A stretch of DNA of 64,000 bases from Eledone cirrhosa (Eukaryota): NCBI GenBank assembly GCA_964016885.1, contig OZ024742.1:255254001-255318000 (forward strand), read 5' to 3'. The stretch's first letter is position 1. Each line of letters begins with the position of its first letter. A program made the translations under genes and the position numbers. Positions 19,698-31,930 of this stretch are shown here, in pieces. Below the pieces are notes generated by a model. The model did no database searches. It was given only the letters and a program-made list of their open reading frames with translations, and had not been told where the DNA came from.

Positions 19698-20690
19698 AGG
19701 TAAATATATGACCCCAACGGCAGAGCTCAGCCATTTTCTACCCACCCGAGTCGTTAGGGGGTTTAAGGGCGAGGTAAGTCCTACCTAATCGGTGTTTGCA
19801 TGCAGTTACCAGTTCGTCTTTTTTGTTTAGGAGGGAGTTGGTCCTTCGTAAACAGCATTTGTAATGTTTCCTCCGAGCATAAGTTACACGGACGGCGTCT
19901 TCCCGTGTAGGAGTTAGCTCTGGACAGTAAGCTCCAAGTAAGATTGTATGTTATGTTATTATCTTGGAGATCCCAGATGTGGCCCGAAAATGTAGTGGCA
20001 TGTCGCCGGACCGGGTTTCGGAACGTATTCCGGTGTTAGTAAGAGCCGGGTCTTAAAGTCACGGTTAATCTTATATAAGCTTTGTTGGAGGTGTCCGTCC
20101 TCACGTTGCACTGGTAGATCACGTTACGTTCTCGGCATCTGTTGTTGAGGGGGCACGTAGATCTATCAGGGCAGTTACACCTCCTGGTCGGCTCTCCGCT
20201 AATGTCTAGGTTGTTTCTTCCATAGATGTTGAGTTTTTTGTTGTTTGAGGAGACGATGTTTTGTGCGAAGTTTGGTGTGGAGCTGTAGGAGAGTTTGATA
20301 GTGTTTTTGTTGATTATGTTGTGGTAGCCGTGTTTTGGTGGGAAGTGTTTTTCGAGGAGCCTAAAGAAGATTTTCCCGATAGGTGTTGCCACCTCGGCAT
20401 TGTGGGGAGGATTGAACCACGTTACGTGGCGTGAGCGGAGGCGTCACCTGCTGGTTCCGCTAAGGGAAGCTGGATAAAAGGATATTTCCTCCCAGAAGCT
20501 GCTTCGCTTGAGGGCCTGGTTGTAATGAGGCGCATGTTCGTCGAATATCTGCTCATTAACGGACAAACGAGATATGCGGAGGGAAATGTTTTTAACCAGA
20601 TTATTGGTGATGTTTCTGGGATGGTTAGAGCGGCGGTGGATGTAGTGCAGGTTTTCGTTTAGTTTCCTGTATGGGTAGTACAGATCACTT
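19698..20690 (-). mobile_element. Penelope-like element 3' fragment (RT thumb + GIY-YIG) with degenerate hammerhead end
   Basis: WFNPP, IGKIFFRLLEKHFP..TIKLSYS, CNC..CPL..C, NVIYQC, terminal ELVTACKHR; 3' half of an HHR next to the (TA)n tract. Confidence 0.85.
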
Positions 20691-21024
20691 CTTACTATCC
20701 AATTTTATATTTTTATATATCTTTCTCTTATTTTTTTATTGTCTCCTAATCTCACTTGATTTACCTATTCTATAACGTCCCTCCTCTATTTTCTCCAGAA
20801 CCCTTTTTCGCCTACTTCCTTTGGCCTACTTTCATACACAATCCTTAGAATGTGCTGTATAGATTTCACTTTCAACGCTTGACCGGCTCCACCCACTCCC
20901 TCATTGTTCTACAGGCAAGTACAGCCACCCCATCTCCCACCCAATGTCATGATAGACTTAATTGTATTTACAACAAATTTTGACTAATCCTCTTGACAAC
21001 TACAATCTTCCCATATAAGGAAGT

Positions 21025-21120
21025 ACCCCTTGAAAAGTTCGGCTATTTATTTACCAGGCTAAAAATTCTAATTTAGTCCAGAAATAGCCGTCGAAACGGC
21101 TTGAACTCTGCCGTCGGGGT
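21025..21120 (+). ncRNA. Type I hammerhead ribozyme with long stem II and stable stem III
   Basis: ACCCC-TTGAAAA-gttCGGCTATTT...AAATAGCCGtc-GAAA-CGGC(9 nt)GCCG-TC-GGGGT; GUC at 21113-21115. Confidence 0.88.
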
Positions 21121-22666
21121 CATACATTTTCCTATTACCCACTCTATTACTCTAAGTATTGAGTACTCTGGAGCGTTATGGTCTATCTGGTTCCTTACCA
21201 CAACTCCTTCGTTATATATATATATATATATATATATATATATATATATATATATATATATATATATATATATATATATATATATATATATGTGTGGGGA
21301 TATTGGTGGTATATGAGTATTAAATCTAGCAGTGAAAGGCAGGCCGACGACATCCCACGCATGAACAGGCACAACAGCTTGACCGGGTGAGAGACAGGCG
21401 TTACCTTCAGGATAGACTGATAATGATAATGAGATAATGAACCAATAGCGGACGTAGAATACCACGCTGTTAAAATGTGCTGTAGATAGCTAATAGCTAG
21501 AGATCTTCACGCATAGAATCGGAGACGAGATCACATAGGAAATATATATCTGACAATCTTTCGATTAGAGTCAGGTTCGATCTATAATAGGCCTTTCCTC
21601 GAGCTGATCGCTAGTGAAACATATGTAATATGTTATTAAATATGTTATGATGCAACACTGAATCCTTGTTCCTTTATTAAAACAGATGAGCAGTATAGTG
21701 AGTTTAACAAAAATATCAAACCATACATACTGGACATCAAATAAATATTTTACACACTCATAATGGTAACAGAACCCTGTTTTATCTTTGGAATGGTTAA
21801 GTTCAATGGTTAATTAGGATCTTCGAGAGAATAATATAGATATTTGATGTCTGGTATGTATCGTTTGATATATTTTTGTTAAACACATTTGTAATTATAT
21901 GTTCTAACAGAGACAGCTCGGAATTTATCCTTGAGCTTTTTTTGCAGCTGATATGGATAATATCTGTGATTTTCTCAGATGCAACATCTTTATTCATTTT
22001 AGTGATATAAATATGCTCCTGAATGGTTTGGTATTTTATTGTTGAATGGTTTGTTTTATTTTTTTTTTGTATGTGGGGGGGGTACTATTTCTAGCTATCC
22101 ATATACCTATTCATGTCACGTAGACAAAACTGAGACACAGTGTTTATTTTCGAGCCTCCCTGTGCATTTCAGCCAGTTTCTTAGATTTGTTTTAGAGGTG
22201 TAAGTTCATATAGTTAATTCTCTCTCGCTTATGTTCCTAATTAACCATTGAACTTAACTATTACAATGGTAAAACATGGTTCTGTAGCCACAAGGGAAAA
22301 ATATACAAGTGAAATAGTTATTTGATGTCCAGTATGTAGTGTATAATATACTGTTGTTAAGCTGCCTATACTGCTTATTTGTAATTAATATTTGATATAT
22401 TTCTATATATGCCATTTGCTTTCGAATTTGTATATATATATATATATATATATATATATATATATATACGTTTAAATTTGGTGGTTTACCAGAGGGTAGA
22501 ATTGGTCATTCTGCAATGTTAATCATAACGTAATATGAGAAAAGCACTCAACGTTATGCAACTCATTCATCTTCAATATCGAATCATGTTGGTGGTGCGA
22601 AAACGGAGCAAATGTATTATAAATTAAAATGACAGGAGGCCAAATATTTTGAATTTCCTTAATTTT

Positions 22667-22722
22667 GACCTGATGATGTCACTGGGTTCTTAAGCAACCT
22701 GGCCACTGAAATGTGCATAGTG
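22667..22722 (+). ncRNA. Degenerate hammerhead motif
   Basis: GAC-CTGATGA-[CTGGGTT..AACCTGG hairpin]-GAAA-TGTGCA-TA-GTG; stem I partly broken. Confidence 0.55.
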
Positions 22723-23019
22723 TTTACAGTAATAAAAAATTAAGGAAATTCAGCATATTTGGCCTTCTGTCATTTTACTTTATATATATATGTGTGTGTG
22801 TGTGTGTGTGTGTGTGTGTGTATACCTGTTTAGCTTTCTTGACTGTTACTGAGGTATATGTGACATGTTCACAGAACAAAGTTAGAAAAATGATTTTTCT
22901 TAACTAAAATGTATTTTTTCTTTGATATTGAGGCTCCCATATTGAATGATATAACCATATAGTATATGCTTTTATAACCAGCTTTATTAATTTTAACACT
23001 ATCTAATTGCTACTGTATA

Positions 23020-29882: not shown

Positions 29883-30785
29883 ATGGAATAGAATGAAACG
29901 AAATTTCATTTCTCACTCTTAGTACGGCACTTACTTAAATGTAAGTATGTATGTATACGTACATACACACATGTATAAAGACGCACAGTAGTATGTATAT
30001 ATATACATACATGCGCACACACATATATGCACGTATCGGTTTACCGAACATTTATTATAATGCTCGGTTTGTTTGTTTGTAAACAAACAAACAAACAAAC
30101 AGCTCGAATTACGCCGTACAATGTTTAGGCAACCAGTCACCTTTTTGTTCAACACTGACACAGGAACAATGTACTAGTTTCAAGCTTATTAGCCATCGTC
30201 AGCATCGTATACCTTCCTGCCAGATGGTTGAACGTCTAAAAGTATATACTTTCCCTATGCATATTAACGGCTGAGCAGCCTAATTTGCATATCGAGTGAG
30301 TTCAGTCGGCCGGGCACACCCACCGAAAACGATAAATGGAATAGAATGAAACCAAATTTCATTTCTCACTCTTAGTACGGCACTTACTTAAATGTAGGTA
30401 TGTATGTATACGTACATACACATATGTATACAGACGCACAGTAGTATGTATATATATACATACATGCACACATACATATATGCACGTATCGGTTTACCGC
30501 ACATTTATTATAATGCTCGGTTTGTTTGTTTGTAAACAAACAAACAGCCCGAATTACGCCGTACAGTGTTTAGGCAACCACGTCACCCCTTTGTGCAACA
30601 CTGACACAGGACCGATGTACTAGTTTCAAGCTTATTAGCCATCGTCAGCATCGTATACCTTCCTGCCAGATGGTTGAACGTCTGAAAGTATATACTTTCC
30701 CTATGCTTATTAACGGCTGAGCAGCCTAATTTGCATATCGAGTGAGTTCAGTCGGCCGGACACACCGAAAATGATAAATGGAATA
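29883..30785. repeat. Head-to-tail tandem dimer of a ~450 bp unit
   Basis: Units 29883-30335 and 30336-30777, then a third ATGGAATA start. Confidence 0.95.
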
Positions 30786-30789
30786 CGTA

Positions 30790-31660
30790 CATACGTGTAA
30801 ACCCTTCTTCGTCAGCAGAGGAAGCAGCTTCCTAAACTTCTTCCAACCTGTCCTTATTTTAGATACTATGGCCTCGGAACACCCCCACCCCCTCCCATGC
30901 TAATCTGATCTCCTAGGTACCGGAAGCTATCCACCACTTCTATAACACCCGCCTGCATTTGAAAAATGTGTCTATCAATGCGACTTCTACTGTCTAATTT
31001 CCCTGTACATTTACTGCATACGTATTTCTCCCTACCTGTTAGTTTGCCTGCTATCCCGGTACATTTCTTGTGTACCCAGGATCTGCATTGTGTGCATTTT
31101 ATGCCAGTTTCTTTTCTGCATATGGAACATGGCCATTTCCCTGACAGAATCAGAGTGTTGTCCTCTTTTCTACTCATCAACACATTTGTCTTAGCTAGGT
31201 TCACTCTCAATCCTCTTGCTTCCAACTGCTGTTCCATAGCCATAATTTATTCTCTAGCTCCTCTACTGATTCTGCTATAAGAACCAGATAGTCAGCATAG
31301 AGAAGTTCCCACGGACAGCCAGTCTTAAACTCCTCTGTTATGGCTTGGAGGACTATAATGAACAAGAGCGGGCTGAGGACCGAATCTTAATGTACTCCTA
31401 CTTGTATCTGGAATTCCTCACTAAACTCCATTCCTACCCTGACTTTACTGACAGTACCTCTGTACAAAGTTTGCACTGTCCTCACAAGCCATTCCTCAAC
31501 ACCTAGTTTCCTTAGGGACCACCAGATGACAGATTGCGGTACCCTATCAAAGGCCTTCTCTAGGTCAACAAAGGCTAATTATAGTGGCTTATTTTTCTCT
31601 AAGAACCTCTCTTGTAATTGTCTCACCAAGAAGAGGGCATCTGTTGTACTCTCCCCAGGC
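30790..31660 (-). mobile_element. RTE LINE internal fragment (RT + Cys-rich region)
   Basis: STTDALFLVRQLQE, DLEKAFDRV, LYADYL, KWPCSIC..C..C..WVHKKC, YLGDQI. Confidence 0.9.
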
Positions 31661-31734
31661 ACATATATATAAATATATATATATATATATATATATATAT
31701 ATATATATATATATATATATATATATATATATAT

Positions 31735-31930
31735 AAAACGAAGTAAATGTGGTAAGGAACCAGATGGACCATAACGCACCAAAGTACTCAATACTTAGGG
31801 TAGTAGAGTGGGTAATAGGAACGAGTAGGACCCCGACTGCTGAGCTCAAGCCGTTTAGACGGCTAATTCTGTCCAGAATTGGACGTGGAAACGGCTTGAG
31901 CTCAGCCGTCGGGGTCCTACTCGTTCCCAT
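31735..31930. mobile_element. TA-flanked asymmetric hairpin of two PLE 3' ends carrying only HHR 3' halves
   Basis: Hairpin 31818-31927; the long arm is homologous to 21076-21213. Confidence 0.9.

Follow-up and report, generated by a model that had tools for sequence, protein, structure and literature searches.

Paired long and short 3' ends in head-to-head insertions of an apparent Penelope-like element from Eledone cirrhosa

Penelope-like elements (PLEs) are the closest retroelement relatives of telomerase. In the twin priming of LINE-1, each strand of the target serves as a primer on the RNA, and end joining of the two cDNAs yields an inversion; there the second primer falls at variable internal positions and the arms have hardly any overlap. 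The element described here differs in having two fixed sites, 80 nt apart, and arms that duplicate each other. For EN+ PLEs, an inverted pseudo-LTR with a tail at one inverted end has already been published (PMC3846280, PMC8557442), and that pattern shares with ours the 5'-truncated, head-to-head inverted copy, the partial tandems, the extension at one end and the microsatellite targets. The published tail is 30-40 nt long and optional or often at one end, whereas here it measures 80 nt (107 and ~32 nt in two neighbouring families) and, when counted, was near-obligatory, one per insertion; and where those papers propose self-priming or endonuclease resolution for the inverted copies, we lean towards twin priming. 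Two RT start sites bracketing a PLE tail have also been published, for PAc, the Poseidon element of Anolis carolinensis (PMC11167929), in which the two internal starts lie downstream of a hammerhead, as do the two end sites here, and for which an AT-rich target, the cutting and extension of both strands in vitro and a predicted dimer are described. PAc starts 111-118 nt into its ORF and initiates without target homology, whereas in our element both sites are in the leader, upstream of an ATG at +191, and share TAT with their (TA)n target. Both PMC8557442 and PMC11167929 list as an open question how the inverted repeats and one-sided tail of PLEs arise.

The window, i.e., the whole 64,000-nt stretch of E. 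cirrhosa DNA that was analysed, contains two insertions, locus 1 and locus 2, with the features listed here.

19696..19736, minus strand: short end of locus 1 (S, +20), with the 3' part of hammerhead stem III, the cut site and the stem I 3' strand, then (TA)n (alignment and fold)
19727..19736, minus strand: deletion junction, where imperfect microhomology of ~10 nt links the ORF stop region to stem III (from alignment with the natural copies L061, L064, L065 and L070)
19727..20690, minus strand: end of the PLE ORF of locus 1, broken and 5'-truncated, with the RT region end, CxCx5C linker and GIY-YIG-type endonuclease (motifs, alignment)
19738-19740, minus strand: stop codon of this ORF end
20685..20690, no strand: head-to-head inversion junction of locus 1, a 6-nt overlap common to both arms
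20685..21215, plus strand: long arm of locus 1, a pseudo-LTR truncated at its 5' end and followed at L (+100) by (TA)n
21018..21133, plus strand: complete type I hammerhead motif, U3-A8 core variant with long stem II, predicted cut after 21115 (fold)
21030-21036, plus strand: hammerhead core TTGAAAA
21073..21079, plus strand: TTAGTCC, initiator-like by its resemblance to the consensus; its A at 21075 is position -41
21093-21096, plus strand: hammerhead GAAA
21136..21215, plus strand: 80-nt tail between S and L, locus 1
31735..31871, minus strand: long arm of locus 2 (-37 to ~+100), 3' half of the hammerhead only
31735-31814, minus strand: tail of locus 2
31871..31930, plus strand: short arm of locus 2 (-40 to +20), stem II mutated; G31871 common to both arms

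Numbered from the predicted hammerhead cut (after GUC, between 21115 and 21116), the S ends (19696-19698, 31930) fall at +18..+20 and the L ends (21213-21215, 31735) at about +98..+100, a separation of 80 bases. All four window ends fall on S or L and continue as (TA)n, with TAT common to end and repeat. The original prediction, made for 19698-21213 and 31735-31930, had placed these ends and their motifs correctly and had called all of them hammerhead-bearing; related and outward-facing they are, but the whole hammerhead is present only in the arm at 21018-21133, by its fold, and the 3' half alone in the other three. The short arm of locus 1 carries a deletion in which 0.35-1.0 kb of 3' UTR (the size varies with the copy compared) and the hammerhead 5' half are missing; that this arm ends after a second, separate hammerhead was ruled out, the feature being the deletion junction. 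The locus 1 ORF end is 81% identical to the L070 protein over residues 171-463, locus 1 and locus 2 come from distinct subfamilies (87% over 135 nt), and in full-length copies the 80-nt tail is part of the leader.

That the layout belongs to PLEs, as proposed from the coding sequence in locus 1, holds: copy L438 has an apparently intact 719-aa ORF with an RT followed by a GIY-YIG endonuclease, whose YRDD core and VIYQC..AYIGLT were read by eye. Pfam returned a weak RVT_1 match (E 0.045) and no GIY-YIG match for a 481-aa part, and it is by its motifs that the element is assigned to the EN+ Penelope-like group. Pseudo-LTRs from partial tandems, an inverted 5'-truncated copy and a tail at one end are found in L438 and L065, with a period of 3,118 nt, and in the window loci. 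The hammerhead in the pseudo-LTR, whose catalysis is putative, forms a three-way fold in the window motif and in copy L244 (the latter with a stability z of -0.46, alone not significant), and its TTGANAA core occurs in 90 of 101 motif counts, duplicates included; Rfam at gathering score gave 0 matches for the window hammerhead, and a U3-A8 variant is described in PMC4209133. L438 further contains SDKTG (DKT), LRWRT (RWR, with R for the K of RWK), a CNCPDRSIC linker (CxCX5C), CNLC (CxxC) and CKH (CxH), and by eye no cysteine pair between the GIY and YIG equivalents, so no CCHH. The RW-basic and DKT motifs, the linker, a CxxC and a CxH beside the conserved E and N towards the endonuclease end, the hammerhead and insertion into (TA)n are all characters of the Hydra clade in PMC8557442, from which the element differs in having RWR, not RWK, and a unit of 3.1 kb as against generally <3 kb; judged by these motifs it is a Hydra-type PLE. 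A retrozyme was rejected, since that requires head-to-tail monomers with complete hammerheads and the arms here are head-to-head and mostly lack the ribozyme 5' half; a term search of the main text of a 2026 retrozyme preprint gave no match for tail or priming.

Exact S ends followed by TA number 20,150 genome-wide and exact L ends 22,828. When the end positions of 98 arms were tabulated (a position-ordered sample drawn from 22,010 exact matches to a motif upstream of both sites, of which the first 100 gave these 98), 50 were at S, 41 at L, 3 were read-through and 4 lay elsewhere, and only 2 of the 5 TAT sites within +1..+200 are used as ends. The broad scatter that would have spoken against two defined sites is absent, the clustering is not due to chance, and two fixed ends are confirmed as general beyond the window. 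Sampling drew mainly on contigs C1 and C2 and on young subfamilies, and the samples overlap one another; BLAST start points near -55 to -100 were excluded because stem II is self-complementary, and the (TA)n target hides target-site duplications. That a Poseidon PLE starts RT in vitro at two sites bracketing the tail (PMC11167929) is why we favour S and L as probable priming sites over cutting or joining sites.

The two ends are also paired. An S partner was found for 79 of 100 tail-anchored matches (67 by script, 12 by eye); among the rest, 2 make up one L+L insertion, 1 is a read-through inside an L+S insertion and 18 are solo or unresolved. Among those resolved the figure is 79 of 80 (p ~1e-19). 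From the other side, 49 S-ended arms of another, overlapping sample had an L partner in 41 cases and an S partner in 2, with 6 unresolved, and 92 copies picked by the locus 2 centre comprised 85 L+S, 1 S+S, 1 read-through+L and 5 damaged. Head-to-head pairs with both ends visible were L+S in 9/9 and 6/6 in two other window families, where arms were matched by proximity. A second sample, in which copies of a single insertion that had multiplied within a larger repeat predominated, was excluded from the pair counts. With exceptions across samples of 1 L+L and 2-3 S+S cases, one S and one L end per insertion is near-obligatory, and the idea that the asymmetry of the arms is programmed by two defined sites gains support from both the sites and the non-random pairing. 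These exceptions and the 18 of 100 long arms lacking a resolved partner count against twin priming.

Because junctions mostly differ between copies (45 distinct among 56 short insertions), the rule likely acts at each insertion event; of these junctions 23 have inserted bases, including poly-A runs, 23 show microhomology and 10 are blunt. Three young subfamilies are of similar age, and both arms carry the same subfamily haplotype in 73 of 74 pairs (against an expectation of 39%), which suggests that the two arms of an insertion come from the same source; two RNAs of one source locus would likewise give matching haplotypes. Two separate cDNAs are favoured by the 5' reach of the arms: among 72 short insertions that of the S arm exceeds that of the L arm by more than 5 nt in 24, that of the L arm is the greater in 12, and 36 are equal. 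The ORF, too, is found on either arm, on S in locus 1 of the window and on L in L436. Some of the junction variety, and some of the cases in which S reaches further, could stem from central deletions that the palindromes underwent later. Short arms in other copies end at a wall near -41, the A at 21075, which may be the RNA 5' end; there was no clear peak of truncation at the hammerhead cut (+1) among arm starts.

On balance, we think it probable that each insertion is a head-to-head, 5'-truncated pair, one S and one L end, made when both ends of a cut (TA)n primed RT at two staggered sites on the same source RNA. The endonuclease would cut both strands within (TA)n, and each target 3' end (..ATA) would pair with UAU at +18-20 or +98-100. 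The two RT molecules, which would probably form a dimer on a single RNA, would be unable to share a site, so that one would start at S and the other at L, the latter displacing the first cDNA. From an RNA starting at -41, cDNAs would run off after ~60 and ~140 nt, which would account for the frequent insertions of 200 nt, and tandem read-through RNA would give the long arms with ORF; the cDNA 3' ends would then be trimmed and joined through microhomology or untemplated bases. A predicted stalling of L arms at +20 on the S-primed hybrid was not seen, the starts after the cut being spread from +4 to +57. In vitro, PAc has no start-site difference between top and bottom strand (PMC11167929), and the evidence for twin priming is drawn wholly from dead genomic copies.

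The pairing, the duplicated region upstream of S and the free 5' extents would be explained equally well if the two primers used separate RNA molecules, with an asymmetric protein dimer holding both and its subunits preferring S and L, and this version predicts no stall at +20; but co-expressed sources should then give mixed-subfamily pairs, for which there is 1 candidate in 74 despite three subfamilies of similar age, and an extra rule is needed against S+S and L+L, so we regard it as unlikely. Slightly less likely again is fold-back or self-priming to a hairpin copy that the endonuclease resolves at S on one arm and at L on the other, near the proposals of PMC3846280 and PMC8557442. It accommodates the 36 of 72 short insertions with arms of equal reach, the haplotypes common to both arms, and TAT at S and L as in the target. 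Yet the S arms that extend further 5' argue against simple fold-back: from an L cDNA they (24/72, and window locus 1) would be impossible unless sequence was lost later, an S cDNA offers no source for the tail, rare variants are shared by the two arms in 2 cases and confined to a single arm in 53, and the published RT start sites coincide with the tail ends (PMC11167929).

A layout that arose a few times and was inherited through palindromic, non-autonomous master elements is largely refuted and, in our estimate, very improbable. One exact centre, that of locus 2, does recur in 573 exact genome matches, and one short L+S unit has been multiplied inside a larger repeat (L075-L100), but this centre makes up only ~2.6% of arm matches (573 vs 22,010), junctions are mostly distinct, and long ORF-bearing pairs obey the same rule. 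Moreover, the tail is left of the locus 2 centre in 49 copies and right in 36, with both sides in all 7 haplotype groups of at least 3 copies and also (11 and 10) among copies without differences; locus 2 as a MITE-like master family was rejected on the same observations. An assembly artefact is conceivable in TA-rich, palindrome-rich sequence that is difficult to assemble, but its probability is close to nil: unassembled contigs from runs X1 and X4, one of which may be the source sample, likewise break off as loose ends into (TA)n at S and L, their summed depth drops more than 100-fold beyond L and shows a step at the -41 wall, and the sampled copies have unique flanks and private mutations. 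Runs X5 and X6, with 3 and 4 records, were left aside.

Beyond the published tail pattern, what is added here are the counts, the 80-nt tail and the evidence favouring twin priming. Among the papers that the literature searches listed, none put forward one-S-one-L twin priming for PLEs. The family offers a simple target, an apparently intact ORF and, for S and L alike, more than 20,000 young ends, and its single-base predictions (starts at +20 and +100, RNA start at -41) lead to a direct in vitro question: do the two strands use different sites on one RNA? Tentatively, and at somewhat less than an even chance, PLEs may integrate by programmed twin priming, in which a dimer working on a single RNA would use the two ends of a double-strand cut and two staggered leader sites, so that each insertion would have one tail from the outset and most would be 'strong-stop' 200-nt palindromes that end at the transcription start. 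If that is true, the inverted pseudo-LTR would be the second priming event of every insertion, and no accident.

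The window holds two head-to-head insertions of one Penelope-like element (PLE), and the original prediction had correctly placed their four ends: two lie at a short site (S) at about +20 and two at a long site (L) at about +100, counted from the predicted hammerhead cut at 21115|21116, and at each the element end and the adjoining (TA)n have TAT in common. The 80 nt between S and L form the tail, and each arm is one 5'-truncated copy.

Arms and junctions of the two PLE insertions
19696-20690, minus strand: short arm of locus 1, a broken ORF end joined to stem III
20685-21215, plus strand: long arm of locus 1, head-to-head with the short arm
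20685-20690: junction of locus 1, a 6-nt overlap of both arms
31735-31930: locus 2, 196 nt and nearly palindromic, its two arms joined at G31871

The short arm of locus 1 has a deletion of 0.35-1.0 kb between the ORF end and stem III, and its junction shows imperfect microhomology over about 10 nt. That all four ends carry a hammerhead held for 21018-21133, where folding predicts a complete three-way junction with the U3-A8 core known from a schistosome PLE (PMC4209133); the remaining arms of both loci have no complete hammerhead.

Genome-wide, 22,010 exact matches were counted for a motif upstream of both end sites. Of the first 100, on contig C1, 98 were scored, and the arms ended at two sites and were not scattered, as anticipated: 50 at S and 41 at L, with 3 read-through copies and 4 ends elsewhere. 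Exact patterns of each end followed by TA gave 20,150 S and 22,828 L ends, a rough ratio, since the patterns differ in subfamily coverage. Only two of the five TAT sites in +1..+200 are used as ends. Unassembled contigs of sequencing runs X1 and X4 contain loose ends into TA at both S and L, and their summed depth rises near -41 and falls more than 100-fold after L.

Inverted pairs are, as had been proposed, almost always one long plus one short (L+S). Among the first 100 of 24,010 matches to a tail motif, 79 were partnered by an S arm (67 such calls came from a script and 12 from inspection by eye), 2 were a single L+L insertion, 1 was a read-through within an L+S insertion, and 18 were solo or unresolved; independent pairing would make about half L+L (p about 1e-19 for this tail-anchored sample). 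In an overlapping sample anchored on 49 S arms, with one anchor reassigned to a deleted L arm, the partner was L in 41, S in 2 and unresolved in 6. Copies picked by the locus 2 centre (90 of 573 places, giving 92 copies) comprised 85 L+S, 1 S+S, 1 read-through+L and 5 damaged.

The rule likely acts at each insertion. In a set of 56 short insertions, 45 different junctions were seen; 23 of the insertions were joined at microhomology, 23 had inserted bases, including poly-A runs, and 10 were blunt. Copies sharing the commonest sampled junction carried the tail on one side in 49 and on the other in 36; both sides occurred in all 7 haplotype groups of at least 3 copies, and undiverged copies divided 11 and 10. 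As junctions vary and tail side is mixed, a single inherited master element is unlikely. One L+S insertion (L075-L100; C16, C20, C27 and others) is contained in a larger repeat present about 20 times, with many of the copies about 100-250 kb apart on C20.

The two arms had an identical subfamily haplotype in 73 of the 74 pairs scorable for common haplotypes among 156 examined (39% by chance), even though three subfamilies are of apparently similar, young age. Rare variants were mostly confined to one arm (53 cases, with 2 on both), which excludes later homogenisation as the cause. In 72 short L+S insertions, the furthest 5' reach was -39 to -46 in 49, most often -41 or -40, and a single insertion went beyond -46. 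This wall falls in the stem II loop, where -41 is occupied by the A of TTAGTCC, a sequence that fits an initiator consensus. Untemplated A runs follow -41 in L261 and L274, and one or two extra 14-nt repeats, resembling telomerase repeat addition, start at this wall in the junctions of L139 and L162, as if cDNA had slipped back and re-primed there. From sequence, we infer that the wall is the RNA 5' end. In L189 (C2:22152886), L298 (C1:27009756, 27010013) and L314 (C13:14438659), arms reaching -40/-44 run on into another copy, which they enter at about +213 to +217, and in L298 this happens two times in succession; such joins (4 matches at 3 loci genome-wide) hint at a third site or the RNA 3' end.

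These features probably reflect twin priming, on one RNA or two. The endonuclease would cut both strands of (TA)n, each cut end would prime at a UAU of the same source RNA, the first at S and the second at L or the reverse, and the 3' ends of the two cDNAs would be joined. We lean slightly towards this one-RNA form, although the L-arm stall that it leads one to expect at +20 was absent; priming on two RNAs of one locus fits nearly as well, and palindrome decay can blur junctions. The evidence is against fold-back of either cDNA. In 24 of the 72 short insertions, the S arm extended beyond the L arm on the 5' side by over 5 nt (in 12 the L arm extended further, and 36 were level). A folded L cDNA could not yield such S arms without later loss, and a folded S cDNA has no source for the tail. 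Either arm can hold the ORF (locus 1, L436). In read-through copies both S and L fall within the leader, before the ATG at +191, which makes them sites internal to the RNA.

Pfam returned only a weak RT match. To judge from its motifs, this long-tailed family is of Hydra type: DKT, RWR, CxCx5C, CxxC/CxH, the hammerhead and the (TA)n target all agree with the definition of the Hydra clade in PMC8557442 (section 11). The young, full structure L438, made up of an inverted L arm, a partial tandem and an S end, has an apparently intact 719-aa ORF at 3580-5739, a candidate for biochemistry.

In a second PLE family, at 9081-9610, the two arms also meet head to head, the left one bearing a 107-nt tail; this family has a minimal U3-A8 hammerhead motif and a related ORF in L331. 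A third family, at 12696-15003 (18 matches), has 426-nt inverted arms 99% alike and a left tail of about 32 nt. Every head-to-head pair of which both ends could be seen was L+S, 9/9 (30 loci) and 6/6 (18 loci), respectively. The 258-nt arms at 49478-49998 (99% complementary, spaced 5 nt, (TA)n at the right end) may be another such insertion. Inverted matches among fragments at 15664-16493, 23175-23376 and 27405-27840, which by eye look like an RTE-type LINE, are unrelated, and minisatellite arrays occupy 8534-8938 (unit about 27-32 nt), 32597-33321 (19 nt) and 38165-39043 (30 nt).

The two-end layout is a real, general and mostly known PLE feature. Published tails on one inverted pseudo-LTR are 30-40 nt and optional or often one-sided (PMC3846280, PMC8557442), compared with 80 nt here and 107 and about 32 nt in the neighbouring families. 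PMC4209133 mentions hammerheads paired on opposite strands. In PMC11167929, two internal start sites bracket the tail, both strands are extended and a dimer is predicted; the sections drawn on here do not address the pairing of the sites. The one-S-one-L twin-priming model was not found in the literature searched, outside which lie older subscription papers and supplementary figures. What this analysis contributes is a pairing rule put in numbers and evidence that speaks against fold-back; with these, the integration mechanism becomes directly testable.
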